Assembly: GCA_009777315.1 (NCBI GenBank)
Contig: WRMD01000002.1
Span: 10,401 to 74,400 of the forward strand
DNA: 64,000 nt
From: Candidatus Saccharimonadota bacterium
GTDB taxonomy: Bacteria > Patescibacteriota > Saccharimonadia > Saccharimonadales > Saccharimonadaceae
Reading direction: 5' to 3'
Position 1 is the stretch's first letter. Each line of letters begins with the position of its first letter. The notes under the pieces are model-generated. The model was not told the origin of the DNA, made no database searches, and saw nothing but the letters and a program-made list of their open reading frames with translations. Below are positions 5,620-49,769 of the stretch, piece after piece. The position numbers and the translations under genes are program-made.

Positions 5620-5824
5620 CCTCCCACCCCCTACGGGTAGACACAGCGGAGGGAATAACCCCAATGGTCACCATTAGCGAATGTGCCTGGTTGAGCAATA
5701 GTAAAAGTTACATCAGCACGAGCGGCAGTCAGTATGTTAGATGAACTCCACCAAAGCCCCCAGTCGGATTGACCAGCTAGACCATTATTCGGGGCAAAGT
5801 ATGCTGCCGCGACAGTGGCGAAGG
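5620..5824 (-). repeat. hypervariable cassette arm L1 (left arm of element 5620-6186)
   Basis: Outer boundary cctcccaccccctacgggtagacacagcggaggg at 5620-5653 and inner boundary gacagtggcgaagg at 5811-5824. Stop codon at 5631-5633 (minus). Open frame: FATVAAAYFAPNNGLAGQSDWGLWWSSSNILTAARADVTFTIAQPGTFANGDHWGYSLRCVYP*. Confidence 0.9.
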
Positions 5825-5960: not shown

Positions 5961-6186
5961 CTCCTTCGCCACTGTCGGGGCGGGTGATTTCTTCGGCAGT
6001 AGTCTAGAAAACGGTTTTCGCAATCAATCCAGCCACCCGCATATTCATAACTCATCGCTCGACTCGGGCTTGGGACCTAGCATCGCCTACATGACCACTG
6101 TAGCAATTAGTCCAGGTACTCATGGTCCGACTGCAAAGTTTCGTGGCTTCTCCCTCCGCTGTGTCTACCCGTAGGGGGTGGGGAGG
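5961..6186 (+). repeat. hypervariable cassette arm R2 (right arm of element 5620-6186)
   Basis: Inner boundary ctccttcgccactgtc at 5961-5976 and outer boundary ending gtagggggtggggagg at 6186. TAG at 6172-6174. Open frame: FATVGAGDFFGSSLENGFRNQSSHPHIHNSSLDSGLGPSIAYMTTVAISPGTHGPTAKFRGFSLRCVYP*. Confidence 0.9.
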
Positions 6187-8678: not shown

Positions 8679-9653
8679 TTAGTGTTCGCCTTCGGTGTGG
8701 AAGCGGTCGTGGATTTCTTTTAAGTGTTGGTCGGTGAGGTGGGTGTAGACTTGGGTGGTGGAGATGTCGGCGTGGCCGAGGAGGCCTTGGACGGAGCGGA
8801 GGTCGGCGCCATTCATGAGGAGGTCGGTGGCGAAGGAGTGGCGCATGGTGTGGGGGGTGACTTTTTTGGTGATGCCGGCGAGCTTGGAATACTTATCGAC
8901 GAGGCGCTGAACGGAGCGGGCGGTGAGGCGGGCTGAATTCTTGTCGTCTTTGTCGTCTTTTTCTTTGGGATTAGGGCTGGTGATCTTGTCGCGGTAGTTG
9001 ATGAAGAGGGCTTTGGATTGGTCGTTTCTGGTGGCGAGGTAGTCGGAGATGGTTTCGGCGGCGGAGGGGGAGAGGAAGACGGGGCGGTCTTTGTCGCCTT
9101 TGCCGCGGACGACGAATTCGCGGCGTTCGAGGTTGATTTGGCCGCGGTCGAGGGCGACGAGTTCGGAGACGCGGAGGCCGGAGGAAAAGAGGAGCTGGAG
9201 GATGGCTTGGTCGCGGAGGTTGTCGGGGGGGATTTCGTTTAGGATGCGTTCGACTTCGTCGATTTGGAGGAAGGAGACTTGGGGTCTGACGACTTTGGGG
9301 AGGTCGATTTTAGCGGCGTCGAGGGATTTGATGTCACGGCGAGCGAGGTATTTTAAGAATTGGCGGAGGGCGATGATGTAGTAGGTTTGGGTGCGGATGG
9401 AGAGGGTTTGGCCGCGGTCATCTTTGTAGCGGTTGAGGTAGAGGCGGTACTGGCGGATGAGGTCGGGGGTGATGTCGGAGGGTTTGGCGGAGGAATCTTG
9501 GTCGGGGTTTTTGGGGTCGGCGGGGCGGTGGTCGTCGGCGAATTGGGCGAAGCGTTCGAGGTAGAGGCGGTAGTTGGCGATGGTGCGGAGGGAGCGGCCG
9601 CGCTCGATTTCGAGAAATTCGAGGAAGTTGTCGATGAGGTCGGTGATGTACAT
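8679..9653 (-). CDS. tyrosine recombinase, XerC/XerD family
   Basis: 324 aa. Catalytic motifs are ARLTARSVQR, HTMRHSFAT and LLGHADISTTQVYTH (R-H-R-Y set). Confidence 0.85.
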   Translation of the reverse strand: MYITDLIDNFLEFLEIERGRSLRTIANYRLYLERFAQFADDHRPADPKNPDQDSSAKPSDITPDLIRQYRLYLNRYKDDRGQTLSIRTQTYYIIALRQFLKYLARRDIKSLDAAKIDLPKVVRPQVSFLQIDEVERILNEIPPDNLRDQAILQLLFSSGLRVSELVALDRGQINLERREFVVRGKGDKDRPVFLSPSAAETISDYLATRNDQSKALFINYRDKITSPNPKEKDDKDDKNSARLTARSVQRLVDKYSKLAGITKKVTPHTMRHSFATDLLMNGADLRSVQGLLGHADISTTQVYTHLTDQHLKEIHDRFHTEGEH

Positions 9654-13383: not shown

Positions 13384-13582
13384 CTCCTTCGCCGCTGTCT
13401 CATCGGGCTGGAATGCAGGAGAACAGTCAACTTCTTCATATTGGTGGCCCTCATCACTAGATTCAAGCACAAATCCTTCTAGCGGTGCCATACTAAGCTC
13501 GATTCTTTGGCCGAGTACCGCAAACAACCATAAGTCCTACGGCTTCTCCCTCCGCTGTGTCTACCCGTAGGGGGTGGGGAGG
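13384..13582 (+). repeat. hypervariable cassette arm R3 (solo)
   Basis: Inner boundary ctccttcgccgctgtc at 13384-13399 and TAG at 13568-13570. The outer boundary ends 3 nt before the stop of the next gene. Open frame: FAAVSSGWNAGEQSTSSYWWPSSLDSSTNPSSGAILSSILWPSTANNHKSYGFSLRCVYP*. Confidence 0.9.
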
Positions 13583-13585
13583 AGG

Positions 13586-13951
13586 CTAAAGAAATAGCAA
13601 GATGATTATAACTCCAAGTACGATTAAAAAGATATTAATCGCACGAGAGCTGCGCTCATTCGCTTTCTTGTAAGTTTCCTCTGAGGTTGCTCTGCTAACT
13701 GTTCTGCGAGTACGCAAAGATATGATTGCCATCACGGCAAAAACCACTACCATTATGGCGATGAGTGGTATCACCAAAACCATGAGAATCCCTAAATAGC
13801 CTGCGCCGTTCATAGCGGTAATCAGACCAAGAATCAGCAGTATCATTAGCGCCATAAGCACAAACCAGAGAATAGCAAATCTCGTCCATTTACGCACCAG
13901 CTTTTGCTGCTGGTAATGCCAAGGGAGTTCAGAAGATATCTCCAGACCCAT
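13586..13951 (-). CDS. hypothetical small membrane protein (AT-rich gene boxed between two arm termini)
   Basis: 121 aa with 3 hydrophobic helices. TGgTAGAAT lies 6 nt upstream of the ATG at 13951. Confidence 0.6.
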   Translation of the reverse strand: MGLEISSELPWHYQQQKLVRKWTRFAILWFVLMALMILLILGLITAMNGAGYLGILMVLVIPLIAIMVVVFAVMAIISLRTRRTVSRATSEETYKKANERSSRAINIFLIVLGVIIILLFL

Positions 13952-13974
13952 ACTCCCATTCTACCACACCACAT

Positions 13975-14189
13975 CCTCCCCACTCCCTACGGGTAGACAC
14001 AGCGGAGGGAAGTGCCATGATTCTTGTCCATCTGGTTGTCACCCGGGTGAGTAATAGTAGCAACTAAGTGAAAGAAGTTTGAACGCATACCGTTACTCTC
14101 GAATACGCCAGAAGTCCACCAGCGCGCCTCAGTACCCTGAAGCCATACTGAGGCGGGGCTGCTCACACCTCCCGTGACAGTGGCGAAGG
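13975..14189 (-). repeat. hypervariable cassette arm L4 (solo)
   Basis: Outer boundary cctccccactccctacgggtagacacagcggaggg at 13975-14009 and inner boundary at 14176-14189. Open frame: FATVTGGVSSPASVWLQGTEARWWTSGVFESNGMRSNFFHLVATITHPGDNQMDKNHGTSLRCVYP*. Confidence 0.9.
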
Positions 14190-18792: not shown

Positions 18793-19001
18793 CTCCTTCG
18801 CCACTGTCCCGACTGGTCACTTCAACGGTAGCTTACGGGAGCAATCTATTGATTTGCGTTCGTGGGCTTCATCAGCTGGTCCGACAGCTTCTTCCCTTAC
18901 GGAGGTGCGGGGTACGTCTGTCATACCAGCTGATGTTACCGCTGGGTCTAGATATGCTGGTATCTCCCTCCGCTGTGTCTACCCGTAGGGGGGTGGGGAG
19001 G
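18793..19001 (+). repeat. hypervariable cassette arm R6
   Basis: Inner boundary at 18793-18808 and TAG at 18986-18988. There is one extra G in the G-run. Open frame: FATVPTGHFNGSLREQSIDLRSWASSAGPTASSLTEVRGTSVIPADVTAGSRYAGISLRCVYP*. Confidence 0.9.
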
Positions 19002-19003
19002 TG

Positions 19004-19012
19004 TGGTAAACT
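19004..19012 (+). promoter_or_regulatory. extended -10 promoter (TGgTAAACT) abutting the arm terminus, leaderless rnhA
   Basis: The context is ggggaggTGTGGTAAACTagttgcATG. The promoter ends 6 nt before the ATG at 19019. The same sequence context occurs at 32334-32342, 39519-39527 and 13958-13966 (minus). Confidence 0.5.
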
Positions 19013-19018
19013 AGTTGC

Positions 19019-19432
19019 ATGGATTATTATACGGACGGTAGCTGTGAGCCGAACCCGGGGCTGGGTGGCTGGGCGGTGGTGACGTTGGAGGGGCCGGTGG
19101 CGCTAGGTTGCGATGAAAACACGACGAATATACGGATGGAGGGGCTGGCGCTTTTGGCTGCTATTGAGCTGTGGGAAAAGGGTGACACTATTCATACGGA
19201 TAGTCAGTTTTGGTTGAATGTGTTGACGAAGTGGGCGCCGGTGTGGGAGGCGAAAGGTTGGGTGAAGAAGGGCGGGGCGATTGCTAACTTGGAGTTGGTG
19301 CAAAAACTTTATGCGGCGTTTCGAGAGAAGAATCCGGATATAATTTGGACGCGGGCGCATGTGGGGACGGCGGGTAATGAGTTGGCTGATGAATGGGCGA
19401 ATCGGGCGCGTGAAGGCGAGACGTTAGGCTAG
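19019..19432 (+). CDS. rnhA: ribonuclease HI
   Basis: 137 aa. Motifs are YTDGSC..NPG.GGW, MEGLALLAAIE, IHTDSQ and AHVGTAGNELADEWA. Confidence 0.85.
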   Translation: MDYYTDGSCEPNPGLGGWAVVTLEGPVALGCDENTTNIRMEGLALLAAIELWEKGDTIHTDSQFWLNVLTKWAPVWEAKGWVKKGGAIANLELVQKLYAAFREKNPDIIWTRAHVGTAGNELADEWANRAREGETLG

Positions 19433-19433
19433 T

Positions 19434-19663
19434 TCTCCCCACCCCCTACGGGTAGACACAGCGGAGGGACATGCCATAAAACCTAGCGTTACTGTTTACA
19501 CCGGGGACGATTCGAGGGGCATCTACAAGTGCGAAATGAACGTAGTCGTCAGAAGACAAGGATGCCGAATACCACTGCCCGTAATTAGACTGAAACGTCA
19601 GACCGTGGCCGAGGGCTGGGGCACCACCGGGAGCAAAGAAAGCCGTAGAGACAGTGGCGAAGG
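19434..19663 (-). repeat. hypervariable cassette arm L7 (left arm of element 19434-20011)
   Basis: The outer boundary starts 2 nt after the rnhA stop. The inner boundary is at 19650-19663. Open frame: FATVSTAFFAPGGAPALGHGLTFQSNYGQWYSASLSSDDYVHFALVDAPRIVPGVNSNARFYGMSLRCVYP*. Confidence 0.9.
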
Positions 19664-19791: not shown

Positions 19792-20011
19792 CTCCTTCGC
19801 CGCTGTCTCGGCAGATATCTTCAATCCTGGCGGCGGTCAATATGGTAGGCCAACAATCACACTTTGGTTTGCTTCGTCAGTTTTCTCGACCACTTGGGGG
19901 ACTCTCACGAACTTAAGCGACACGTCTATCTCCCCGGGCGCGAATAACCCGGGCAATTCTAAGTTCGCAGGCTTTACCCTCCGCTGTGTCTACCCGTAGG
20001 GGGTGGGGAGG
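19792..20011 (+). repeat. hypervariable cassette arm R8 (right arm of element 19434-20011)
   Basis: Inner boundary ctccttcgccgctgtc at 19792-19807 and TAG at 19997-19999. Open frame: FAAVSADIFNPGGGQYGRPTITLWFASSVFSTTWGTLTNLSDTSISPGANNPGNSKFAGFTLRCVYP*. Confidence 0.9.
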
Positions 20012-22449: not shown

Positions 22450-22635
22450 GCTTGTCTTGAAATAAACTAAGAAGTAGTATATAGTATAATCAGTTACTTT
22501 CAGGGTTACTGTTAATTTTTGTCGGTGGGGAGGATGGTTGATGAAAACACCGAAAGCGGTACCTTGAGAGATTGCTAGATTTTAAATCTTCTTGACGGAG
22601 TCGCCGTCAGCATAAAAATAATGGAGGGATTATTT

Positions 22636-23905: not shown

Positions 23906-24128
23906 CTCCTTCGCCACTGTCTCGGCAGACTATTTTGCCCCAGCTAGAGGTTTAAGAGCTACATTCGTCGGATATTGGATGACGCCGTCTCTATGGTCCC
24001 AGGTATCTGCAAGTTTAGTCGTTGTGGTTGAAGACGCTATCCACCCGGCAATAGTTGCAAGCAACCTGACCGGACGCAAACTTGATGGCTGGACCCTTCG
24101 CTGTGTCTACCCGTAGGGGGTGGGGAGG
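23906..24128 (+). repeat. hypervariable cassette arm R9 (solo, next to tRNA-Ser)
   Basis: Inner boundary at 23906-23921 and TAG at 24114-24116. The Leu codon is ctt. Open frame: FATVSADYFAPARGLRATFVGYWMTPSLWSQVSASLVVVVEDAIHPAIVASNLTGRKLDGWTLRCVYP*. Confidence 0.9.
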
Positions 24129-24181: not shown

Positions 24182-24271
24182 GGAGAGGTGTCCGAGTGGT
24201 TTAAGGAGCACGCTTGGAAAGCGTGTGTGCGGGCAACCGTACCTGGGGTTCGAATCCCCATCTCTCCGCCA
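24182..24271 (+). tRNA. tRNA-Ser (anticodon GGA)
   Basis: GGAGAGGTGTCCGAGTGG..., anticodon loop UUGGAAA, a long variable arm, T-loop GGTTCGAATCC and encoded CCA. Confidence 0.9.
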
Positions 24272-24277
24272 TTTGTG

Positions 24278-24886
24278 TTATTTCTTCTTAAACAACCAGA
24301 TCCCGCCAAAATTTTTGTCGCCGTGTTCTTGAATTGCTGCAAACATTTTTTCCGCTTTCACCCATCGCCACTGCGGACCACCCATAATCGGGTCCACCAC
24401 CTGAATCTCGTCACCTACCACCCTATCAAACACCACGCCATGCCCGTACTTATAATCGGTGTCATACGCCACTCCATAACGGAAGCATAGCAACGCATCA
24501 CCATCTGTTTGCTCGGTCTTTCGCAGTTGCACCAAAAGCTCTGTCACATCTTTTAGCTCACTTGCTAAAATTTGCTTATTTATGACTATTGGAATGCCTA
24601 ACTCTGTAAACGCCTTATCTGGGCTATATTGTGGACCATAGCCCCAACTCAATGGTTTCTCTCTCACTTCGGGATTATAGAACTTTGCCTCGTCTTCTGA
24701 CGGTACTACCAAGCCCATATAGTGACCCAGTTCTTCTTGAGGCTTCAGCGTCATACCATTCTTATTCATAATCATCGACATGCAAGCTGGTATACAGTGC
24801 CATGGTTGCTGAACTATTGGCACATAACGAGACTTCGGTATCACTGGTTTCTCCATATCCCTATTATAGCATAATTTATGGTACAA
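24278..24886 (-). CDS. papain-like cysteine peptidase (C39-like) candidate
   Basis: 202 aa. QQPWHCIPACMSMIM matches the Q-x5-C nucleophile context, and a later YGHGVVFD could supply the His. The gene is AT-rich. Confidence 0.4.
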   Translation of the reverse strand: MYHKLCYNRDMEKPVIPKSRYVPIVQQPWHCIPACMSMIMNKNGMTLKPQEELGHYMGLVVPSEDEAKFYNPEVREKPLSWGYGPQYSPDKAFTELGIPIVINKQILASELKDVTELLVQLRKTEQTDGDALLCFRYGVAYDTDYKYGHGVVFDRVVGDEIQVVDPIMGGPQWRWVKAEKMFAAIQEHGDKNFGGIWLFKKK

Positions 24887-24985
24887 TATCGGTAGAGGAC
24901 AGTAGTGGGCTGAGGTCGCTGGTCAGTATAATAGTTCGGACTTCGTTCAGACACTTCCGCCAAGCAGATAAATTACGAACGGGCC

Positions 24986-26368
24986 TCACATGGAGGCTTG
25001 TTTTGTATCTATCGAAAGGCTCAAATTTCGGTCTATAGTTAGGGTATTCACAAACACCTCATCGTGCGTAGCTACTAGAATTGCTCCCTTATATTCAGAC
25101 AATGCGCTTTCAATGTTCGCTCTCGCTCTGATGTCTAGGTGGTTGGTTAGCTCGTCAAGAATTAGCAAGTCTATCGGCGCCAAGATTATCTTTAATATAG
25201 CCAGCTTTGTAATCTGCCCTCGCGATAGCTTGCCAACAAGGATTGACATATCTGACGGCTCAAAATCCATAGTTGAAGCGGCTCGGAATATCTCACTTCT
25301 GTCGGCAGTGTCAATTTGGTCTATAAAACTCTCGTCAAGATTTAAGCCGAAAACATCTTGTGAGATATAGCCGAGCTTAAGGTTTGGGGCGAACTTTATC
25401 GTGCCACTATCTGCTTCAACTTCACCTAAAACGATCTTGAATAGAGTGCTTTTTCCTGTGCCGTTGCCTCCGACTACGCGGACTCGCTCGCCAGTTCTCA
25501 TCTCAAAGTCGAGATTGCTGAATAAGCACTTGCCACCATAGCTTTTGGCTAAATCTTCTACTTTTAGCAACTGTCGGTCGTGCGTGAAGTTAGCCGATAC
25601 CTGCGCAGAGTAGGCTTTGCGCTCTATCGGTTTTTGTATGTCATCTAGCTGTTCAAGTTTAGAGCTAACCGCTTTGATAATCTTGCCGGCGTGGCTCTCG
25701 GAGCTACTCTTGCCAGCACGAAACCTAGTCTTGCTTTCATCTCGTACCTTGTCAAAACTCCGATTGCCGACCTTGTTGGATTGGTTTTTTGCGACGGAGA
25801 TTTGCTTCAAGAGTTTTTGCTTTTCGCGGTTCGCTTTTTCGTAAGCGGAGCTTTGCTCGTTTTTGATTTGCTCCGTCCTTGTTAAAAAGTCCGAGTAGTT
25901 GCCGCTATATAGTTCGGTCTTCCCGTCTTTGATTTCTAGCACTTTGTCTGCCACTTGATCTGTGAAATTACGATCGTGGCTTACCAACAACACCAAACCA
26001 TCAAAATGTTGGAGTTCATTGTGGAGCCAAGCTTTCGCTTCTTGGTCTAGGTTATTCGTCGGCTCGTCTAGCAGTAAGACATTTGGTCGCTCATTGAAAA
26101 GAGCTTCTAGCTTCATTTTTGTTCGCTCTCCACCAGACTTGTCCGCCAAGTCCTCGTGGGTCTGTTTGAGATAGCCGACCTTGCCAATGGCTCGTACGTA
26201 GCCATCATCAGGCGTAAGTTCGCCAGCTATTAGTCGTAATAGCGTAGTTTTACCGGTTCCGTTGTCGCCAATGATAGCGATTTTCTCACTGCTTGACAGA
26301 TTGAGATTTAGACTATCAAAAAGAGTCTTGTTCGCGTGTGAAAATGTTAGATTTGAGATGTGTAGCAT
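24986..26368 (-). CDS. ABC-F type ATPase (two fused nucleotide-binding domains, no permease)
   Basis: 460 aa. The two Walker A motifs are GDNGTGKTT and GGNGTGKST, with signatures SGGERTK and LSRGQITK. The gene is AT-rich. Confidence 0.8.
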   Translation of the reverse strand: MLHISNLTFSHANKTLFDSLNLNLSSSEKIAIIGDNGTGKTTLLRLIAGELTPDDGYVRAIGKVGYLKQTHEDLADKSGGERTKMKLEALFNERPNVLLLDEPTNNLDQEAKAWLHNELQHFDGLVLLVSHDRNFTDQVADKVLEIKDGKTELYSGNYSDFLTRTEQIKNEQSSAYEKANREKQKLLKQISVAKNQSNKVGNRSFDKVRDESKTRFRAGKSSSESHAGKIIKAVSSKLEQLDDIQKPIERKAYSAQVSANFTHDRQLLKVEDLAKSYGGKCLFSNLDFEMRTGERVRVVGGNGTGKSTLFKIVLGEVEADSGTIKFAPNLKLGYISQDVFGLNLDESFIDQIDTADRSEIFRAASTMDFEPSDMSILVGKLSRGQITKLAILKIILAPIDLLILDELTNHLDIRARANIESALSEYKGAILVATHDEVFVNTLTIDRNLSLSIDTKQASM

Positions 26369-26475
26369 AAAATATCCTTCGTTTAGGTTGAGTTCTTCGG
26401 GCCAGGGATATTTAGCTATTCATAGTGTTATTATAGCACAAAGCTATAGTATAATCTAGTTGGAGTGAAAGTATT

Positions 26476-27165
26476 ATGAATACCCATAGTTTTACGGGCA
26501 AATCACAGGCCTACGCCATAGCACGTCCGAGCTATCCTGACGAGGCAATTAGATACATACGCTCACTTGTTCCAGTCGATGCGGTCTTTGCAGATATTGG
26601 TGCGGGTACAGGAAAGTTCTCAATTCTTATCGCTAAATGTGGGTATGAGGTGTTTGCTGTTGAGCCTAATGCGGACATGCGAGAGCAGCTTGTTACTACA
26701 CTTGCACCTTTCCCGAATGCACGAATTGTTGAGGGGGCAGCAGAGGCATCGACTCTTGCTGATAGCAGTATTGACGTCATTACTTGTGCGCAAGCACTCG
26801 GGTGGTTTAATCTGGATAAATTTAAGGCGGAATGCCGAAGAATTGGAAAACCGGGAGCTATTGTAATTTCTATACATAATGAAATGCCAGGTGACGATTT
26901 CGTGCCAAGCAATAATCGACTTACTAATAAACGAGCTGCTGAAGTGTTCTTTAAAGACCTAGTTTCCAAAAAATTTAGCAACCCGATTTCTTATACACGG
27001 GAGAAATGGCTTTCGTACAATGCGTCGATTTCGGATAACCCTCAGCCGCTTGACCAAGGATATGAGGTACATGTAACCGAGCTGAACGCAATTTTTGATA
27101 GCGAAAATGTTGCCGGTCTTCTTCGTCATAACTTGATTACTAGAGTGTGTAGCGGAATAATATAA
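26476..27165 (+). CDS. class I SAM-dependent methyltransferase
   Basis: Motif I is FADIGAGTGKFS. TATAAT lies about 20 nt upstream with a GGAG RBS. Confidence 0.7.
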   Translation: MNTHSFTGKSQAYAIARPSYPDEAIRYIRSLVPVDAVFADIGAGTGKFSILIAKCGYEVFAVEPNADMREQLVTTLAPFPNARIVEGAAEASTLADSSIDVITCAQALGWFNLDKFKAECRRIGKPGAIVISIHNEMPGDDFVPSNNRLTNKRAAEVFFKDLVSKKFSNPISYTREKWLSYNASISDNPQPLDQGYEVHVTELNAIFDSENVAGLLRHNLITRVCSGII

Positions 27166-27181
27166 TAACAAATGGTCAATT

Positions 27182-27946
27182 ATGAAAAATGCGGTTAGAA
27201 TCGGCGCCTGCCAGACACCAGAGATAATTGGTGATTCAGCTGCGGCGCTTGGTTGCATGTTGCAATTTGCAAAAGAGGCCGAGGGTAAAGAAGTAGACTT
27301 GCTGTTGTTCCCCGAGTGTTTTTTGACTGGGTATATATTGACCGAAGAGTACTTAGAGGAAAACGCGTTTGATTTTGCGTCCGAGGAGTTCGCGAAAATA
27401 CTTGAACGGCTGGCTGGCGTAAAACAGATAGTCGTTTTTGGCGCAATGGAGAAAGAGTCGGGAAAGTATTTTAACTCTGCTGTTGTGGTGGAAAAGGGTG
27501 AGATTGTTGGGGCTTATCGTAAGGTGCACCTTATAAACCCGAATGAAACAGCGTTGATCGCGGCGGGCGAAGATTTTCCAGCTTTCGAGGTCAAGGGGTT
27601 GAGGTATGGGATCAATATCTGCTACGATACGCAATTTGCGGAAGCGGCGGGAGTGGTGGCCGAGCAGGGCGCGCAGCTTTTGCTATCGCCGGCGCAAAAT
27701 ATGATACGGCGGGGGAATGCTGAGAAGTGGAAAGATAAGCACAGTGAGGTATGCGCGGAGAGAGTCAAAGAAACCGGCTTGTGGTTTGTCCGTTCGGACG
27801 TGACCGGCGTGCGTCCGGCAGATGAGAAGGGCGTGGAGCGCGTTGCGTATGGTCCGACGCTGGCGATGAATCCAAAAGCCGAAATTGTTGCGCGGGTGCC
27901 GCTTATGACTGAGGGTATGATTACGGTTGATATTCCTTTGGCGTAA
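27182..27946 (+). CDS. carbon-nitrogen hydrolase (nitrilase superfamily)
   Basis: The E-K-C triad context is LLFPECF, YRKVHL and GINICYD. Confidence 0.8.
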   Translation: MKNAVRIGACQTPEIIGDSAAALGCMLQFAKEAEGKEVDLLLFPECFLTGYILTEEYLEENAFDFASEEFAKILERLAGVKQIVVFGAMEKESGKYFNSAVVVEKGEIVGAYRKVHLINPNETALIAAGEDFPAFEVKGLRYGINICYDTQFAEAAGVVAEQGAQLLLSPAQNMIRRGNAEKWKDKHSEVCAERVKETGLWFVRSDVTGVRPADEKGVERVAYGPTLAMNPKAEIVARVPLMTEGMITVDIPLA

Positions 27947-27952
27947 ACTTAT

Positions 27953-28163
27953 CCTCCCCACCCCCTACGGGTAGACACAGCGGAGGGTAATGCCTATTTG
28001 TTTTGGCAGGGTATTTGTAGCCGGGCTGAACGAATTCTGTTGCATGTTAAGGCGCATAAAGTGCGTAGCCGAAGCCAAAGATGGTGTGTGCCAAGATGTA
28101 TGCGTAGATTGAGTCTGTAGGCCATTTGGAATATGAAGAGTATCTGCCGAGACAGTGGCGAAG
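27953..28163 (-). repeat. hypervariable cassette arm L10 (element 27953-28488)
   Basis: Outer boundary at 27953-27987 and inner boundary at 28151-28163. Open frame from track ORF 27965-28222: FATVSADTLHIPNGLQTQSTHTSWHTPSLASATHFMRLNMQQNSFSPATNTLPKQIGITLRCVYP*. Confidence 0.9.
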
Positions 28164-28184
28164 AGAAACTTTATAAAGTTTCTC
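28163..28184. repeat. 22-bp perfect palindrome gagaaactttataaagtttctc
   Basis: Self-complementary by inspection. A second core copy is at 28222-28237. Confidence 0.85.
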
Positions 28185-28265
28185 TCCCCACACTTACCCC
28201 TGCTAAATTGATCCAAATCCAAAACTTTATAAAGTTTCGACCTCTCCCCGGAGACTCCCGAAGCC

Positions 28266-28488
28266 CTCCTTCGCCACTGTCTCTACCGGGTTCTTTAGTC
28301 CTATAGCCTCTTATGCTGGTATGCGTAACCCGTCAGAGAATGCCACTTCGTGGACGGCGTCACTAGTCACGGTAATAAACTCTGCGGGTATGATGGTTAC
28401 TACAAATATCCGTCCGGGCGAAGGTTCTTTCGACACTAAAGCCTATGGCCTTTCCCTACGCTGTGTCTACCCGTAGGGGGTGGGGAGG
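28266..28488 (+). repeat. hypervariable cassette arm R11 (element 27953-28488)
   Basis: Inner boundary at 28266-28281 and TAG at 28474-28476. The Leu codon is cta. Open frame: FATVSTGFFSPIASYAGMRNPSENATSWTASLVTVINSAGMMVTTNIRPGEGSFDTKAYGLSLRCVYP*. Confidence 0.9.
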
Positions 28489-30863: not shown

Positions 30864-30892
30864 TTGACAGTGGGAAAACGCTTATGTATACT
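30864..30892 (+). promoter_or_regulatory. sigma-70 type promoter TTGACA-N17-TATACT for the leaderless pilin gene
   Basis: The -35 element is at 30864-30869 and the -10 at 30887-30892. The -10 ends 6 nt before the ATG at 30899. Confidence 0.55.
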
Positions 30893-30898
30893 AATGTT

Positions 30899-31393
30899 AT
30901 GGACAAGAATGTAAAAAAGCGTGGGTTTACAATTATTGAAGTTGTGTTGGTGCTTGCGATTGCAGGCCTTATCTTCTTGATGGTGTTTATTGCGTTGCCA
31001 GCGCTGCAACGTAACCAACGAGATACGCAGCGAGAAAATGACTTAGGTCGGATGATGGCGGCGTTGACGCGGTTCCGTGCTAACAACAGGAACAGGCTTC
31101 CGGGTGAAGGGCAGCCGGGTGGTGTAACTGCGGTGAACCACTGGAATACCTTCCGGGATCGATATTTGATGGTGAACAACGATACGTTTGAGGATCCGCA
31201 GTCGGGTGTCGTGTACAACTTTACTGTTGTGAACGGTGCGGCTGGTGATCCGGGTGATGCCGGTAGCGGAAACCTGCGGGTACATATTGGCGCGCGATGT
31301 AATGGTGAAGCGGCTGAGGCTGTGGCTGGAAACCGAAACGTGGCGGTGCGAATGCGGCTTGAAGGTGGCGGTATTATTTGTCAGAGTAACTAG
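30899..31393 (+). CDS. type IV pilin-like protein (prepilin-type N-terminal cleavage/methylation motif)
   Basis: MDKNVKKRGFTIIEVVLVLAIAGLIFLMVF, i.e. G-F-T-x-x-E followed by a hydrophobic helix. The track ORF starts at 30884 and I prefer 30899. Confidence 0.7.
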   Translation: MDKNVKKRGFTIIEVVLVLAIAGLIFLMVFIALPALQRNQRDTQRENDLGRMMAALTRFRANNRNRLPGEGQPGGVTAVNHWNTFRDRYLMVNNDTFEDPQSGVVYNFTVVNGAAGDPGDAGSGNLRVHIGARCNGEAAEAVAGNRNVAVRMRLEGGGIICQSN

Positions 31394-31570: not shown

Positions 31571-31722
31571 AAAGCTTTAAAACAAGCTGCCGGGTACAGA
31601 ATTTCTCCGCAAACAGAATAACTTCCGCCCATCGCCATGGGGGAAGTTTTCTTCCCCCTCAGGCTGCCGCCTTCCGGGACGTTGCCGGAGAAATTGTACC
31701 TCGGCGCGCTTGTTTTAAAGCT
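31571..31722 (+). repeat. repeat module family B, copy 3 (terminator hairpin at 31622-31651)
   Basis: Outer stems are aaagctttaaaacaagc / gcttgttttaaagct and ggtacagaatttctccg / cggagaaattgtacc. It has the same core as copies 1 and 2. Confidence 0.65.
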
Positions 31723-31733
31723 AGTGTCTTATA

Positions 31734-31948
31734 CCCCACCCCCTACGGGTAGACACAGCGGAGGGAATGGCCGTAATGCTTGTAGCGGCTTCCGGCTATA
31801 CCAGATTCTGTAGCGCTGATAGACACTCGCGTAAGAGCCGGGCGACTTGCTGCCACGTCAAGTGACGCGTTCATCCAGCGTTCTTGCTGAGATTGGCCAG
31901 TCACACCTTGTGACGACAGAAAGTAACTACTCGAGACAGTGGCGAAGG
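31734..31948 (-). repeat. hypervariable cassette arm L12 (element 31734-32331)
   Basis: The outer boundary starts ccccaccccctacggg, so the first 3 nt differ from consensus. The inner boundary is at 31935-31948. Open frame: FATVSSSYFLSSQGVTGQSQQERWMNASLDVAASRPALTRVSISATESGIAGSRYKHYGHSLRCVYP*. Confidence 0.9.
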
Positions 31949-32032
31949 AGGTCTAGCCCGCTAGCGCTCACGGGGGTAAGAAACTTTATAAAGCTTTGGA
32001 TTTAGGCTTATTTAACAGGGGTAAGTGTGAGG

Positions 32033-32056
32033 AGAGAAACTTTATAAAGTTTCTCT
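32033..32056. repeat. 24-bp perfect palindrome agagaaactttataaagtttctct
   Basis: Self-complementary by inspection. An imperfect copy is at 31980-31994. Confidence 0.85.
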
Positions 32057-32331
32057 TCGCCACTGTCTCGGAGGGGTTCTTTTGGTCGGGTACTGACATA
32101 CGGGAGCAGTCTGAGCTAACGCACTGGTGGTCTGGCTCGCTTTTCTCTAGCACAAGTCCTGCGCGTATCCGCTTAAGTGAAATAGCGATTGATCTGGCTA
32201 CTGGTACACACCAGAAAAACCATGGTAGATCCCTCCGCTGTGTCTACAGATACTCCTCCTACTCGCCTTGCAGGCTCGGACAGGACGCCCGAGGCAGGCA
32301 GAGCCTGACCTCGGGCTAGGGGGTGGGGAGG
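32053..32331 (+). repeat. hypervariable cassette arm R13 with an interrupted outer boundary
   Basis: The inner boundary ctcttcgccactgtc is at 32053-32067. The boundary is split after gtctac at 32247 by 69 nt and resumes with tagggggtggggagg at 32317. Frame from track ORF 31996-32319: FATVSEGFFWSGTDIREQSELTHWWSGSLFSSTSPARIRLSEIAIDLATGTHQKNHGRSLRCVY then RYSSYSPCRLGQDARGRQSLTSG*. Confidence 0.85.
32248..32316 (+). other. 69-nt insertion inside the arm outer boundary
   Basis: The sequence is agatactcctcctactcgccttgcaggctcggacaggacgcccgaggcaggcagagcctgacctcgggc. It contains the 8-bp hairpin gcccgagg...cctcgggc and replaces the ccg Pro codon. Confidence 0.8.
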
Positions 32332-32348
32332 TGTGGTAAAATAGGAGT

Positions 32349-38821: not shown

Positions 38822-39032
38822 TCTCCCCACCCCCTACGGGTAGACACAGCGGAGGGATGCAGCCCAAGATTTAGAGTGTGTGTAGGTGGCAGTTGATATG
38901 CGAGAAGCTACAATGTCGCCTCTATTTGCCTGGTCGTCAGAGAAGAGGGAAGGGTGCCAAAAGTTAGCAGCGCCTGATTGAATGGTCACACCATTGGGCG
39001 CAAGGAAGTCGTTAGACGAGACAGTGGCGAAG
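38822..39032 (-). repeat. hypervariable cassette arm L14 (element 38822-39158)
   Basis: Outer boundary at 38822-38856 and inner boundary at 39020-39032. Open frame: FATVSSNDFLAPNGVTIQSGAANFWHPSLFSDDQANRGDIVASRISTATYTHSKSWAASLRCVYP*. Confidence 0.9.
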
Positions 39033-39058: not shown

Positions 39059-39158
39059 GAGTCGGTGTCGCAAATATCCACTCCGGTATGCATACGGGCA
39101 GCTTAGGCAAAGCTTTTGGCCATTCCCTTCGCTGTGTCTACCCGTAGGGGGTGGGGAG
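39059..39158 (+). repeat. truncated cassette arm R15 (C-terminal ~30 codons only)
   Basis: There is no inner boundary. The frame is ...GVGVANIHSGMHTGSLGKAFGHSLRCVYP* with TAG at 39145-39147. The Leu codon is ctt. Confidence 0.75.
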
Positions 39159-39307: not shown

Positions 39308-39517
39308 TCCCTTCGCCACTGTCACGGATAGCCAGTTTGTTGTGCAACAGGGTTTAGTTGGGCCGGGGACACGCGCTTTCTTTTGGACTTCATCTTTGAT
39401 TTCAAGTTCTAACCCAACTTACATATGGATTATGCCAACAGCAGTTGATATGTCGCGTTCTGATCGAGCCAAAGACCCTGGCTTCTCTCTCCGCTGTGTC
39501 TACCCGTAGGGGGTGGT
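39308..39517 (+). repeat. hypervariable cassette arm R16 (solo)
   Basis: Inner boundary tcccttcgccactgtc at 39308-39323 and TAG at 39507-39509. The G-tail is degenerate (gggggtggtgtg). Open frame: FATVTDSQFVVQQGLVGPGTRAFFWTSSLISSSNPTYIWIMPTAVDMSRSDRAKDPGFSLRCVYP*. Confidence 0.9.
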
Positions 39518-39534
39518 GTGTTAAAATATGGCAT

Positions 39535-39882
39535 ATGAGGAAGTCTTTTTTAATTATCCTTCACCTTGCGCTGACCATCGCTACATACACTTCTTGGCTC
39601 TGGCTGGGATGGGGTTTTGTTGCATTGATCGGCCTTGTGCATATCGCCTACCTAGAAGTTTACCAGGGGTGCCATCTGTCGAGGAAACAGTTCGGCAACT
39701 CGGAGGACAAATTTTACGAATGGTGGATGAGTAAGCTCGGCATCAAGGTCAAAGACCGCCAAAAGACGCGAATTTTCATGACTTACGTAGTGCCGCTTAT
39801 CGTCGCGGTCATTGCGCTTGTGTGGCAAGTTGTTTTGGGCTTCGCGCCGTTGCTGCAGATCCTCCCCACCCCCTATGGGTAG
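39535..39882 (+). CDS. hypothetical small membrane protein
   Basis: MRKSFLIILHLALTIATYTSWLWLGWGFVALIGLV... TGtTAAAAT ends 7 nt before the ATG. The last 7 codons and the stop (ILPTPYG*) lie inside arm terminus L17. Confidence 0.55.
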   Translation: MRKSFLIILHLALTIATYTSWLWLGWGFVALIGLVHIAYLEVYQGCHLSRKQFGNSEDKFYEWWMSKLGIKVKDRQKTRIFMTYVVPLIVAVIALVWQVVLGFAPLLQILPTPYG

Positions 39883-40072
39883 ACACAGCGGAGGGAGAAG
39901 CCGGTAGACTTGCCGCCAGTGCTACCGAGCATGTTAATTGAAGAAATATTTATAATTGGGTAGGCTGGAGGATTCGCTCCTGTCATAGACGCTGCCCACC
40001 ATGATGTGCGATCGGACATTTGAAAGACACCATTAGAAGCACTCATATAGCCACCCGAGACAGTGGCGAAGG
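39861..40072 (-). repeat. hypervariable cassette arm L17 (element 39861-40335)
   Basis: Outer boundary at 39861-39895 with the Pro codon cca (synonymous). Inner boundary at 40059-40072. Open frame: FATVSGGYMSASNGVFQMSDRTSWWAASMTGANPPAYPIINISSINMLGSTGGKSTGFSLRCVYP*. Confidence 0.9.
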
Positions 40073-40075
40073 AAA

Positions 40076-40101
40076 GTACGAAACTTTATAAAGTTTCGTA
40101 C
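40076..40101. repeat. 26-bp perfect palindrome gtacgaaactttataaagtttcgtac
   Basis: Self-complementary by inspection. Confidence 0.85.
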
Positions 40102-40125
40102 CCTCTCCCTGGAAACTCTCGAAGC

Positions 40126-40335
40126 CTCCTTCGCCACTGTCTCACAGGATATCCTGCTTGTTGCTACTGGCCTACTTAGTCAATCCGCTAGAGCAACATG
40201 GTGGTCAGCTGGTAATAATACCGGTACTACGTCATCAACTATTTCTATGGGAGTGGCTGATATAACTATGGCAGAATCCGGAGCCCTAAGATCTGACGGC
40301 AGATCCCTCCGCTGTGTCTATCCGTAGGGGGTGGG
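40126..40335 (+). repeat. hypervariable cassette arm R18 (element 39861-40335)
   Basis: Inner boundary at 40126-40141 and TAG at 40324-40326. The Tyr codon is tat (synonymous). Open frame: FATVSQDILLVATGLLSQSARATWWSAGNNTGTTSSTISMGVADITMAESGALRSDGRSLRCVYP*. Confidence 0.9.
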
Positions 40336-43485: not shown

Positions 43486-43602
43486 TTGGTCTAGCTCGCT
43501 AAAGCTCGCGATAAAGCAGACAAAATGTCATTTTGATCTGCTTTATGCCTACCGGCGTTCGCTAGCGCTCACGGGGGTAAGAAACTTTATAAAGTTCCGA
43601 CT

Positions 43603-43818
43603 CTCCTTCGCCACTGTCACTACGGACTATTTCACCGGCGGATCAGGACTTGTATTCAGAGACCCTGCGTATGCATATTGGTGGGGCTCATCGCTAACTT
43701 CGACTACCGGTATAGGCAATACCCATATCGGCGGACCTACTCTACGCCCAGGTACAGAAGGCGTAGGTAGATACTTCGGCTTCTCCCTCCGCTGTGTCTA
43801 CCCGTAGGGGGTGGGGAG
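43603..43818 (+). repeat. hypervariable cassette arm R21 (element 43278-43818)
   Basis: Inner boundary at 43603-43618 and TAG at 43805-43807. Open frame: FATVTTDYFTGGSGLVFRDPAYAYWWGSSLTSTTGIGNTHIGGPTLRPGTEGVGRYFGFSLRCVYP*. Confidence 0.9.
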
Positions 43819-46249: not shown

Positions 46250-47854
46250 CTAATCGCCCATTCTGATCTCGACCGTGATGTGATCGAACTGGGTAGGGAC
46301 GCGATTGACCCAGAAGAAGTTGAAGCGAACGGTAGCGTTTGTGATGTCGCGGCTTTGGATGGCGCGATTGGCGTCGCTGGCGCTCCGACCGGCGACGGCT
46401 TCCTTGACGGAATCTTCGGAGATGTCGGGGCCGACGACGGTGGTGGTTTGGAGGCGGGAGGTCATTTGATTGTTAGCTTCGGAGAAATTGCCGAAGAACA
46501 TGCGGTCAAAGCCGAGGTCGAAGATTTTGGTGCTGTCTTCGCCAGCGACGCGCTCTTCTTCACGGATGCGGATGAAGGTTTCGAGGTCGGCGCGATTGAC
46601 GCCGTAACCGGTGAAGGTGGTGGTTTGGCGGATAGTAATGCGTTGGTCGGACCCGACTTCGGCGTCGACGGCGGCAGAACTGGTCGGATCGCTAGTAGAG
46701 GAGGTGAAGGCGGCGCGCGGCAGGGCGATAAGATCGGCGGCGAAGTTGTTGGCGAGCTCGGTTTCGGCGGCTTGGCGGTTGACAACAGGGAGGGCGGCAA
46801 GGGCGGAGTCGTAGTCGCTTTGAGAGACGATAGTGATAGTGCGTTTACTGCCGCCGGTGATGCTCATGGCAGTGGCGGTAAAGTTGTGGGGAGTGCCGGC
46901 CAAGGTAATGGAAAAGGCGCCGCCACTGGTGCGATTGAATTCGTCGCCGAGGGCGGTGGCACGGACGTTCAGTGTTACCTGACCAGAGTTGGCTGTGGTG
47001 GCTTCAGTGGTGCGATAAGTGTGGCTGCCGATGGTGATGGCGGTGTTGGAAGGGATGTTGGCAGGGAGCCCGGCGTAAGTGAAGGTGATCTGACCGCTGG
47101 CGTACTCGCCGATTTCACGACTACCTGTAGCAGTGAACTCGTATTCGCTGACTTTTTCGAGGGTCTCGGAGTGAAGAAGGAAGACGCCGGCTTCTGGGTT
47201 GGCCTCGCCAGCGTTACGAGTGAAGGAAATGGGTTCGTTGAAATTGTGGCGGCTGGTGCGGGCAGTAATCTCGATGGTAGCGCGGGCGGGAACAAAAACG
47301 ATGACGCTAATGATGGCAAGAATGATAACACCGATGGGGATGAGAACGAAGCGGGCGTATTTTTTAAACCAGTCCTTGAAGGATTTGACCTCTTGAGTTT
47401 CGGTGGACTTTTTGGTGTCGGCGAGCTTAACCTTGGGGACGAGGTTGCCGTCGCTGAGCGGATCAGTAGCAGCGACATCGGCAGCAGCTTCGTCTTCGAG
47501 GTCGGTGAATCCGATGGGGGGGGCGGGGTCGTCTGGCTCGTCGATGGTGCTCCCGTGACTGTCAGCTTGGTCGGGTTTAGGCGGTAGGACGGGCTTGTCA
47601 CGAAGGGACTTGGCGACGGGCAGGCCGACTTGGCCGGCTAAAGGCAAAATCTCGGGGTTGTTGCTGACGAGGACGATGGATTTTTTGCCGCGGGTGGCAA
47701 CACGAGAGAGGAGGCGGATGTTGACGATGTTGCGTAGGGCGCCGAGAGACTTCGGTAGAACTAAAACGACTAATTGAGATTTAGCGCGGGTGACTTTGGC
47801 GGAAATGGTGGTAATATCATCAGCCAAATCTAGGTAGATGGTTTCTTTAGTCAT
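46250..47854 (-). CDS. hypothetical membrane-anchored protein (between ruvX and ftsA)
   Basis: 534 aa with one TM helix (FVLIPIGVIILAIISVIVFV) and an extracytoplasmic Thr/Ser-rich region. The 509-aa plus-strand ORF is a low-complexity shadow. Confidence 0.6.
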   Translation of the reverse strand: MTKETIYLDLADDITTISAKVTRAKSQLVVLVLPKSLGALRNIVNIRLLSRVATRGKKSIVLVSNNPEILPLAGQVGLPVAKSLRDKPVLPPKPDQADSHGSTIDEPDDPAPPIGFTDLEDEAAADVAATDPLSDGNLVPKVKLADTKKSTETQEVKSFKDWFKKYARFVLIPIGVIILAIISVIVFVPARATIEITARTSRHNFNEPISFTRNAGEANPEAGVFLLHSETLEKVSEYEFTATGSREIGEYASGQITFTYAGLPANIPSNTAITIGSHTYRTTEATTANSGQVTLNVRATALGDEFNRTSGGAFSITLAGTPHNFTATAMSITGGSKRTITIVSQSDYDSALAALPVVNRQAAETELANNFAADLIALPRAAFTSSTSDPTSSAAVDAEVGSDQRITIRQTTTFTGYGVNRADLETFIRIREEERVAGEDSTKIFDLGFDRMFFGNFSEANNQMTSRLQTTTVVGPDISEDSVKEAVAGRSASDANRAIQSRDITNATVRFNFFWVNRVPTQFDHITVEIRMGD

Positions 47855-49321: not shown

Positions 49322-49539
49322 CCCCGCCACCCCCTACAGGTAGACACAGCGGAGGGGGTGGCCACGGAACTTATGGCTGCCCGAACGGACTCCCGGGTCA
49401 ATAACAGTGGCGCTAACACCTGTGTAGCTCGGTGTTGTTGCGGAGAAAAGTGAAGAGGAACGCGGAACGAACCATGTGGATTGACCAATTAGGCCGCCAC
49501 TAGCAGGATTAAAGGCGTCTGATGAGGCAGTGGCGAAGG
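49322..49539 (-). repeat. hypervariable cassette arm L22 (element 49322-49769)
   Basis: This is the most diverged boundary (ccccgccaccccctacagg, giving RCVYL*). The inner boundary is ggcagtggcgaagg. Frame from track ORF 49334-49558: FATASSDAFNPASGGLIGQSTWFVPRSSSLFSATTPSYTGVSATVIDPGVRSGSHKFRGHPLRCVYL*. Confidence 0.85.
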
Positions 49540-49546
49540 CTCGCTC

Positions 49547-49769
49547 CTCCTTCGCCACTGTCGCGAATGGATTCTTTTACATTATTGCTCCTCTAGGGCC
49601 CGGGTTGAATAACCAGTCTGATCATGTATATTGGTGGAACTCTTCACTGGCTTCATCATCAAACATAGCTAACTCCGGTATGACCGTAGCACATCTGCAT
49701 GCGGGGGCGAACAGTAGCGTCAAGTTTATTGGCTTCTCCCTCCGCTGTGTCTACCCGTAGGGGGTGGGG
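49547..49769 (+). repeat. hypervariable cassette arm R23 (element 49322-49769, only 7 nt of spacer)
   Basis: Inner boundary at 49547-49562 and TAG at 49758-49760. Open frame: FATVANGFFYIIAPLGPGLNNQSDHVYWWNSSLASSSNIANSGMTVAHLHAGANSSVKFIGFSLRCVYP*. Confidence 0.9.

Follow-up and report, generated by a model that had tools for sequence, protein, structure and literature searches.

We analyzed a family of short repeated elements, here called arms, that lie exclusively in the intergenic DNA of a 64,000-nt stretch of a Candidatus Saccharimonadota bacterium genome (the window; contig WRMD01000002.1 of assembly GCA_009777315.1, positions 10,401-74,400 of the forward strand). Each arm keeps an open frame for one end of a Fibrobacter succinogenes major paralogous (FISUMP) domain, framed by two short conserved sites. 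Our preferred reading, which we hold with moderate confidence, is that the arms form an archive of silent C-terminal cassettes that is dispersed in the genome and from which whole units are swapped into the gene for a FISUMP adhesin. The window contains 20 arms and one further arm with a split 3′ end. Arm elements make up 5174 nt, or 8.1%, of the window, the remainder being mostly housekeeping genes, and about 36 arms were seen across ~115 kb of this genome and its close relatives. Related contigs compared with the window carry L numbers below, and our census of distinct arms covers the window and 26 of these loci.

Anatomy of the arms and their homology to the FISUMP domain

All arms have the same order: a 5′ site of 12-17 nt, 162-195 nt of sequence that cannot be aligned from arm to arm, and a 3′ block of 28-45 nt. 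The 5′ site, TTCGCCACTGTC, encodes FATV and occurs 22 times in the window against 0.26 expected; CCTCC usually precedes it, giving the codons (CC TCC) TTC GCC ACT GTC, or (SS)FATV. The 28-nt 3′ block, CTCCGCTGTGTCTACCCGTAGGGGGTGG, is present in 20 copies at three or fewer mismatches (0 expected). In codons it reads GG(C/T)TTCTCC CTC CGC TGT GTC TAC CCG TAG GGGGTGGGGAGGA, which is GFSLRCVYP and a stop, so that the unit closes with SLRCVYP-stop-GGGGTGG; conservation around the block usually reaches GG(C/T)TTCTCC upstream and GGAGGA downstream. The length of the variable part is always a multiple of 3. Blastn gave no alignment between arms, and the variable parts of 51 distinct arms share no 14-mer. 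A previous reading of this DNA from its letters and open reading frames (ORFs), which we call the sequence-only reading, had held that the arms vary by indels and wholesale replacement. The lengths of 162-195 nt, the lack of a common 14-mer and the exchange of whole cassettes between conserved boundaries (see below) support that view. Mosaicism of the kind known from pilS or vls was looked for between arms and was not found, no 14-mer being shared.

The commonest layout is a head-to-head pair with a spacer of 13-142 nt. There are also three tail-to-tail layouts and a few solo or truncated arms. The head-to-head pairs carry near-perfect terminal inverted repeats of 28-45 nt, and a palindrome of 14-16 nt, AAACTTTATAAAGTTT, occurs in seven copies, each 3-57 nt upstream of a 5′ site. 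We reject the idea that the pairs arose by recent inverted duplication, because amino acid identity within pairs is 27% compared to 25% over all pairs of arms. The pair on which we focus consists of the following parts.

39866..40070, minus strand: focal arm, with the 5′ site at 40059-40070, a variable cassette of 177 nt and the 3′ block at 39866-39893; it matches residues 244-310 of the FISUMP protein P0024 (phmmer, E 5e-7)
40071..40129 (59 nt), no strand: spacer of the focal head-to-head pair, with a perfect 26-nt palindrome, GTACGAAACTTTATAAAGTTTCGTAC, at 40076-40101 and a 33-nt linker in common with the arm at 28270
40130..40334, plus strand: partner arm, whose cassette is unrelated to that of the focal arm (24% amino acid identity)

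The focal arm has the open frame FATVSGGYMSASNGVFQMSDRTSWWAASMTGANPPAYPIINISSINMLGSTGGKSTGFSLRCVYP-stop, and the minus-strand ORF at 39873-40085 translates to ...SFATVSGGYMSASNGVFQMSDRTSWWAASMTGANPPAYPIINISSINMLGSTGGKSTGFSLRCVYP*. As single-stranded DNA, 39866-40334 forms a single long hairpin (z = -9.4 relative to shuffled sequences; dG -105.8 kcal/mol), in which good pairing is limited to three blocks: the outer ends, the two 5′ sites and the center. No target-site duplications were seen at arm ends. A scan for promoters and terminators around the arm at 39866-40070 was uninformative, with five promoter-like sites against 1.6 expected and no terminator.

An alignment of the 20 arms with MAFFT gave the consensus xSFATVSxxxFxxxxGLxxQSxxxxWWxSSLxS...IxPGxxxxxKxxGxSLRCVYP. 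This agrees with the pattern in the sequence-only reading, and the example peptide quoted there is exactly the translation of minus strand 39866-40070. In the alignment, F3, A4, L60, R61, C62, V63 and Y64 are invariant, and S30 and G57 are conserved in at least 90%. Full-length proteins are invariant at these columns as well (W270, S273, G293, G302, R306, and C307), and both the aromatic-WW-SS core and the terminal G-F-S-V/L-R-C-V motif of FISUMP are present in the arms. The arms retain the invariant cysteine of the RC motif; the other invariant cysteine of the domain, in CP.GW, belongs to the missing half.

The arms had been assigned to the FISUMP family (PF09603/TIGR02145), and profile and intermediate-sequence evidence (from L014 and P0024) shows this to be correct, with a weak structural match in agreement. 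In hmmscan, 2 of 20 single arms matched PF09603 (best E 0.028) and 3 of 20 matched TIGR02145 (best E 3.3e-4). These were the only families matched by more than one arm; however, the single-arm scores fell below the curated thresholds, as is expected for one third of a domain. L014:1-426, the 3′ end of a real gene on an arm-bearing metagenome contig, reads ...CPTGWRVP...EWAVL...FGAVSAG...GFSVRCVFP-stop. It matches PF09603 over positions 64-186 of 187 (E 6.9e-8), and hhalign joined the arm profile to its last 67 residues with a probability of 98.9% (E 1.8e-17). With the arm profile as query, an exhaustive HMMER search over 1.84 billion representatives gave 357 proteins at E < 1e-3. The short ORFs among them are arms in other genomes; in the long, often multi-domain proteins, the match always lies at the end of a domain of ~300 residues. 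P0024 passes the cut-offs of both families (40.0 versus 33.9 for PF09603 and 50.3 versus 41.65 for TIGR02145), as does P0014 (scores of 61.6 and 92.9, respectively). P0024 is named a FISUMP protein by NCBI, and JGI assigns P0026 to TIGR02145. Word-index searches returned eight short ORFs for the arm profile, two partial proteins for the L014 protein and only itself for P0030. The resemblance to DUF1566 that had also been proposed was not borne out, as neither the arms nor the full-length relatives matched a DUF1566 hidden Markov model (E up to 10 or 0.01).

A phmmer search with P0024 against the six frames of the window matched 19 arms, always with residues ~244-310. Nothing in the window matched residues 1-243 or the CP.GW.xP motif, which bears out the earlier claim that the N-terminal half is missing from it. 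Hence, the arms correspond to the last third of the domain, and the remainder lies outside the window. Judged by these comparisons, the arms are fragments of a FISUMP domain and not members of the family in their own right.

A predicted protein of a related metagenome-assembled genome (MAG FWH13), P0030 (MCL2095134.1, Ca. Saccharibacteria), is a natural full-length protein with an arm-type C terminus. Its 877 residues include a signal-peptide-like N terminus and a complete FISUMP N-terminal half (...RRMMDGKCWMMTNL...LCPAGWRIPVGR...NEWAILNGS...), and its end, ...FWRSSFATVTTGHL...FRGHSLRCVYP, has both arm boundaries at the protein level. The same MAG also holds a stand-alone arm (P0002) and P0024, an ordinary FISUMP protein. 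We modeled the arm-type full domain of P0030 with AlphaFold2 from 30 sequences, with moderate quality (pLDDT 60.5, pTM 0.70); the model of P0024, from 22 sequences, was unusable (pLDDT 41.8). The best match of the P0030 domain model in BFVD was a phage 'Fibrobacter succinogenes major paralogous domain' protein (E 3.6e-3, probability 1.0), followed by weaker matches to DUF1566 and C-type-lectin proteins. Foldseek against the PDB returned nothing significant with this model (best E 0.27), several C-type lectins being among the non-significant matches, and searches of PDB sequences with the arm profile and the full-domain profile found no relative. Variable regions of diversity-generating retroelements (DGRs) that overlap DUF1566, DUF823 or Fib_succ_major have been placed in the CLec2 class (Wu et al. 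2018, PMC5758913), which backs the earlier statement that the arm segment is the part of the domain that DGRs diversify.

Outside the window, a scan of a genome collection found one contig, L001 (WRAN01000031.1), in which an arm pair lies beside an ORF resembling XRE-type regulators (compare L010 and L021). The contig is filed in a 'Defluviitaleaceae' MAG and is probably a mis-binned Saccharibacteria contig. A scan of viral contigs for the 3′ block found none.

Coding constraint, boundaries, and past exchange

The variable parts of the arms are maintained as coding sequence. Over 19 arms, there is no in-frame stop in 1063 variable codons, compared to 43-79 stops in each of the other five frames. 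An unbiased scan of all combinations of 5′ site and 3′ block in the window and the 26 loci yielded 53 distinct arms, 52 of them in frame and open. One cassette was found twice, at 49334-49537 of the window and at L029:4529-4732, with 88% identity. Homology between these twins extends from 2 nt before the 5′ site to GGGGGTGG, and the flanks on both sides are unrelated. The twins differ at 24 nt, 19 of which are third codon positions, amounting to 18 synonymous and 4 non-synonymous codon changes (proportions of synonymous and non-synonymous differences, pS 0.38 and pN 0.027; pN/pS 0.07). No start codon or upstream region is conserved across arms. The ratio of 0.07 therefore indicates that a fragment with no start codon, conserved upstream region or N-terminal half is under purifying selection for the protein that it encodes. 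Between strains that are 97-99% identical, arms differed at 0/428, 1/250 and 0/437 positions, versus 2.4%, 2.8% and 0.5% outside the arms. Such stability is expected of archived donors.

The boundaries of the arms are conserved as DNA. All 20 arms use the same codons, CTC CGC TGT GTC TAC CCG TAG, whereas the full-length paralogues (L014, L024, and L025) encode VRCVFP in different codons and have no G-run; from this difference, we reason that the boundaries act as DNA. L003:1-290 matches L008:2514-2803 at 77/77 nt up to the last base of TTCGCCACTGTC; the two are unrelated for the next ~175 nt and then identical again from the CCCTCC of the 3′ block. Arms with unrelated cassettes have several spacer modules (upstream) and flank modules (downstream) in common, and an orthologous flank (83% identity) adjoins arms of opposite orientation in L003 and L008. 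The breakpoints between L003 and L008, the common flanks and the twin cassette with its different flanks together point to exchange of the whole unit, with breakpoints in the two conserved sites. Cassettes have thus been exchanged whole in the past, among archive loci.

We observed an extreme strand asymmetry throughout the window, with a GC skew of +0.15 to +0.45 in all 2-kb bins except one; in intergenic DNA, the skew is just +0.15. Resident genes have a third-position GC skew in coding orientation of +0.70 on the plus strand and -0.67 on the minus strand, at a third-position GC content (GC3) of 65-71%. In the arms, the GC3 skew is the same in sign regardless of orientation: -0.13 for plus-strand arms (95% confidence interval, -0.26 to -0.01) and -0.23 for minus-strand arms (-0.36 to -0.09), at a GC3 of 46%. 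The contrast in composition between arms and resident genes was replicated in locus L026. Because the third positions of the arms ignore the chromosomal strand bias, the arms are not equilibrated with their present location and orientation. This composition fits movement or overwriting of cassettes and is unlike that of old fixed residents. The strong G excess of the plus strand persists in all resident genes (skew +0.15 to +0.51), so the housekeeping segments between the arms have not been inverted, which disfavors large reciprocal inversion as a routine mechanism.

A proposed cassette-swapping mechanism and its competitors

We propose that each cassette would supply an alternative to the last ~65 residues of a FISUMP (C-type-lectin-like) domain, comprising its final strands and ligand-facing loops. 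With neither promoter nor start codon, cassettes would be silent at the archive loci. Recombination at the two sites would move a block of ~170 nt as a unit among archive loci. We infer that it would also deliver the block to a full-length expression gene, or to a few of them, at other places in the genome; the product would be a secreted IPT/TIG plus FISUMP protein like P0030, and the gene would be expected to have CCTCCTTCGCCACTGTC at the junction and CTCCGCTGTGTCTACCCGTAGGGGGTGG at the stop. A swap would change the binding end of a surface adhesin and leave the rest of the protein untouched. In this genome, the transfer would be non-reciprocal; copying by gene conversion or cassette exchange is favored over reciprocal inversion. 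Its role would be to change the host or ligand specificity of an epibiont.

Several observations weigh against this proposal. Neither an expression gene nor an N-terminal half was found in the 64-kb window or in ~50 kb of further contigs from a sample with the same strain. This strain is present, at 100% and 99.98% identity, in the samples behind JGI 3300002469 and ENA ERZ27257348, respectively. With ~36 arms and no N-terminal half in the ~115 kb surveyed, any expression gene must be rare. No dedicated recombinase or reverse transcriptase lies beside the arms in the window, L002, L012, L026, L028 or L029, the sole recombinase of the window being of the Xer type. Orthologous arms are stable between close strains. 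The full-length FISUMP genes of L014, L024 and L025 lack arm-type DNA boundaries, and the sole candidate for such a gene, P0030, belongs to another MAG and shows the two arm sites at the protein level. At 12-17 nt, the strictly conserved 5′ site is short for RecA-dependent exchange, and since the arms have no internal framework, segmental mosaics of the pilE/vlsE type are not expected. Lastly, an archive leaves the head-to-head pairing and the central palindrome unexplained. We tentatively entertain, as a possibility below even odds, a new type of programmed system: a genome-wide archive, possibly of hundreds of units given the density of arms observed, of palindromically paired half-domains with two short sites and, beside many of them, AAACTTTATAAAGTTT, which would be swapped into a FISUMP adhesin gene by a site-specific or hairpin-dependent reaction and not by ordinary gene conversion. 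Were this the case, DGRs would have a recombinational counterpart that acts on the same lectin-type surface and retargets the attachment protein of an epibiont.

We considered whether the arms might instead work as a shufflon, in which the 5′ sites would be crossover sites, reciprocal inversion would fuse an arm to a constant N-terminal part, and AAACTTTATAAAGTTT would be an accessory or binding site. The 5′ sites do lie in frame exactly at the junction of constant and variable parts, in inverted pairs 13-142 nt apart, and the tail-to-tail units 13388..14187, 18797..19661 and 39312..40070 are laid out as invertible segments whose ends read inward. The seven palindromes 3-57 nt upstream of a 5′ site, breakpoints exactly at the site edge and the orthologous flank beside oppositely oriented arms in L003 and L008 would also suit inversion, as would the fact that the window has a tyrosine recombinase gene whose stop is followed, 144 nt downstream, by a lone 5′ site. 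However, that recombinase passes the XerA cut-off and is probably a housekeeping dimer resolvase, none lies beside the arms of L002, L012, L026, L028 and L029, and there is no compact cluster adjoined by a recombinase and an expressed gene, nor an N-terminal half in the window. The arms extend over at least 45 kb among essential genes: inversions would flip these genes, yet the plus-strand G excess is kept, so none has been fixed, and direct-repeat sites would delete essential DNA. A shufflon would also make the conserved 3′ block superfluous. We consider this explanation unlikely.

We regard as rather improbable that the arms are a selfish palindromic repeat, similar to miniature inverted-repeat transposable elements or REPINs, that once captured a FISUMP 3′ end and spread by itself with no benefit to the host. 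It would account for the perfect terminal inverted repeats of 28-45 nt, the long hairpins of head-to-head pairs (z = -9.4), the exclusively intergenic locations, often 12-50 nt from genes, the composition that differs from the surrounding chromosome, the presence of one cassette in unrelated contexts and the failure to find an associated expression gene in the window or the further contigs. In contrast, non-coding DNA would not keep 1063 codons free of stops or show a pN/pS of 0.07, and transposing copies would be alike internally, whereas only the ends of arms are conserved and the interiors share no 14-mer, at 25% amino acid identity. The similarity of paired arms does not exceed that of random arms, target-site duplications are not evident, and no transposase was found among the scanned ORFs (~50 in the window). 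The same ORFs and the neighboring genes in L002, L012, L026, L028 and L029 include no reverse transcriptase domain, which counts against the arms being part of a DGR, i.e., variable regions or templates rewritten by such an enzyme, with the G-rich 3′ block acting as an initiation of mutagenic homology (IMH)-like sequence. Candidate phyla radiation (CPR) bacteria are reportedly rich in DGRs, the 3′ block ends in a G/C-rich run beside the stop codon, and DGRs target the same segment in DUF1566/Fib_succ_major-type proteins (PMC5758913). Differences among the variants of a single DGR template are confined to template adenines, though, and the arms differ by indels (162-195 nt) with no common 14-mer, while the changes between the twin cassettes are mostly synonymous and not adenine directed; we give this idea almost no weight. 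It is also very improbable that each arm is a small gene in its own right or a pseudogene fragment in decay. Gene callers do predict ORFs of 59-121 aa on such arms in public data, but neither a start codon nor a ribosome-binding site nor any upstream sequence is conserved, the twin cassettes are homologous only from 2 nt ahead of the 5′ site, and a domain with a disulfide bond would be unlikely to fold from one half alone. Decay is ruled out by the open frames, the pN/pS of 0.07 and a divergence below that of the flanks.

The archive that we propose resembles several known systems. Like the arms, the pilS copies of Neisseria are translatable partial copies without promoter or N terminus, dispersed over the chromosome and framed by short conserved sequences, including a block at the 3′ end, and their product is a surface adhesin; they serve pilE by RecA-dependent gene conversion. 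The pilS copies, however, share an internal framework and donate segments, producing mosaics, whereas the arms are conserved only at their two ends, so that the whole block must move. The arms also differ in their head-to-head palindromic pairs, in a target that is a lectin-like domain and not pilin, and in being known here without their expression site. In Borrelia, the silent vls cassettes are likewise kept as open frames; the cassette region is bounded by 17-bp repeats. Donor and expression site are mutually inverted, with a hairpin-capable inverted repeat between them, another likeness to the arms. The vls cassettes, though, form one contiguous plasmid array beside vlsE and recombine in segments, while the arms are scattered among housekeeping genes and have no internal homology. 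Mycoplasma genitalium provides a case of a reduced genome that spends several percent on dispersed, unexpressed partial adhesin copies (MgPar, for mgpB/mgpC), but MgPars are kilobase sized and can be aligned to the expression genes, in contrast to ~200-nt units with site-like boundaries.

Alternative adhesin C termini, a crossover site at the in-frame junction and inverted-repeat sites are shared with the R64 shufflon (pilV/Rci) and the Gin/Cin systems of Mu and P1. These systems are compact, lie beside an expressed gene and a recombinase and have no conserved 3′ block, whereas the arm loci are dispersed and inversion is contradicted by the strand bias. Orphan C-terminal modules of CdiA and Rhs are stored ends without an N-terminal part, in which a short junction motif (VENN or PxxxxDPxGL) allows recombination into the main gene. 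They encode unrelated toxin folds with immunity genes and lie downstream of the main gene, unlike the arms, which represent one half-domain, have no partner gene and are dispersed. The CLec2 targets of DGRs (Legionella LdtA; PMC5758913) share with the arms the domain family, the C-terminal segment up to the stop and surface-exposed ligand binding. DGRs rewrite one region by adenine-directed mutagenic reverse transcription; arms are pre-existing stored cassettes with indels, with no reverse transcriptase in the scanned ORFs.

Silent cassettes that feed a surface protein (Neisseria, Borrelia, Mycoplasma, and Treponema) and swapping of C termini (shufflons and orphan CdiA/Rhs) are already known. 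New here are the domain, a lectin-like end of the DGR type; the host group; replacement of whole units at two short sites without internal homology; the palindromic pairing; and the genome-wide scatter. There is a real chance that the recombination mechanism itself is new, and the exact-edge breakpoints, palindromic pairing and short boundary sites may indicate one that is undescribed. Full-text literature searches for an account of cassettes of this kind in Saccharibacteria or Patescibacteria found none. Members of the CPR, Saccharibacteria included, live attached to host cells, and their host recognition and changes of host range are little understood. As DGRs hypervariate the same domain in other bacteria, its C-terminal surface is marked as a specificity determinant. 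If our reading is true, this surface could be varied by a second route, independent of DGRs, from a stored library of ready-made and selected binding ends that occupies ~8% of the DNA in a lean genome. Cassette-based surface variation, seen in a few pathogens (Neisseria, Borrelia, Mycoplasma, and Treponema), would then also include ultra-small symbionts from the environment.

Other arms and the surrounding chromosome

Beyond the focal pair, the window contains the following arms and associated features.

5624..5822, minus strand: arm; its upstream spacer module recurs in L012 and L029 beside unrelated cassettes
5965..6181, plus strand: arm, identical to database protein P0001
8524..8535 (remnant to 8606), plus strand: lone 5′ site, followed by a short non-arm remnant that also occurs in L020; it is located 144 nt downstream of the Xer-type recombinase gene, counted from the stop
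8679..9653, minus strand: Xer-type tyrosine recombinase gene, passing the XerA cut-off, the sole recombinase in the window
13388..13577, plus strand: arm with a FAAV variant of the 5′ site, tail-to-tail with the arm at 13980-14187
13980..14187, minus strand: arm, identical to P0004 and 100% identical in JGI contig L032
18797..18995, plus strand: arm, with the palindrome motif 57 nt upstream (18740-18753)
19439..19661, minus strand: arm with 5′ site and 3′ block
19796..20006, plus strand: arm with a FAAV variant, 5′ site and 3′ block
23910..24123, plus strand: arm; a possible partner 5′ site at 23758-23769 (one mismatch) lies inside the 3′ end of ORF 22621-23847, with no minus-strand arm
27958..28162, minus strand: arm with 5′ site and 3′ block
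28163..28269, no strand: spacer with the palindrome AACTTTATAAAGTT twice, at 28167-28180 and 28223-28236
28270..28483, plus strand: arm with 5′ site and 3′ block
31736..31946, minus strand: arm; its downstream flank module recurs in L012, L007 and L004 beside unrelated cassettes
31947..32055, no strand: spacer with the palindrome twice, at 31982-31995 and 32038-32051
32056..32332, plus strand: arm with a split 3′ block, caused by an in-frame insertion of ~66 nt (~32248-32313) between GTCTAC and TAGGGGGTGG
38827..39031, minus strand: arm with 5′ site and 3′ block
39085..39154, plus strand: 5′-truncated arm, of which the last ~20 codons and the 3′ block are left
39312..39516, plus strand: arm, tail-to-tail with the focal arm over a 349-bp segment
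43283..43484, minus strand: arm with 5′ site and 3′ block
43607..43814, plus strand: arm, with the palindrome at 43583-43596, ~10 nt upstream of the 5′ site
49327..49537, minus strand: arm with a FATA variant of the 5′ site; the same cassette is in an unrelated context at L029:4529-4732 (88% nucleotide identity, pN/pS 0.07)
49551..49767, plus strand: arm, 13 nt from its partner arm

The insertion at 32248-32313 takes the place of the CCG codon and has hairpin potential. The solitary site at 8524-8606 lies in a 600-bp region of atypical composition (GC 0.44, skew 0.04).

The genes flanking the arms are the housekeeping genes of a small genome and include those for DnaG, RpoD, TsaD, LDH, RseP, RRF, L25, Obg, UvrD, ABC transporters and tRNAs. 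Between the arm at 23910-24123 and the arm pair at 27958-28483, a segment at ~24200-27200 stands apart from the remainder of the window in having 44-46% GC and no strand skew. It contains an ABC-F ATPase (24986-26368) and a methyltransferase (26476-27165) and was probably acquired recently. A prepilin-type (N_methyl) gene at 30884-31393 on the plus strand lies ~340 nt upstream of the arm pair at 31736-32332; type IV pili are reported to mediate host attachment in cultivated Saccharibacteria (PMC11623550). On the minus strand, a 534-aa ORF at 46250-47854 has a weak Baseplate_J match (E 3.5e-6) and lies between MltG/YceG and FtsA-like cell-division genes, and a 1588-aa ORF at 58893-63659 has no Pfam match. 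In the related contig L028 (599-8817), the neighbors of an arm pair are a type I restriction-modification locus, which includes two HsdS-like genes, and Mrr and other defense-type genes.

A second repeat family of ~90-110 nt, with 81-86% identity, adjoins arms. It is present in the window at 13257-13343, 18421-18529 and 31593-31701 (plus strand), and in L012:11180-11324 (reverse complement) and L007:781-1008. Its core consists of CAAACAGAATAA, a hairpin, TTCCGCCCAT-CGCC-ATGGGGGAA, with compensatory changes between copies, and then TTTTCTTCCCCCTC...GGGACGTT. It looks like a structured RNA or a terminator module, with no Rfam match at the gathering score; an Rfam scan of the window returned tRNAs alone. 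Between two arms, at 39445-39882 on the plus strand, there is a possible ORF for a small membrane protein that ends in ...LLQILPTPYG-stop and has no Pfam match. The next arm provides this stop through its 3′ block, read as the reverse complement; TAG is present on both strands of the block.

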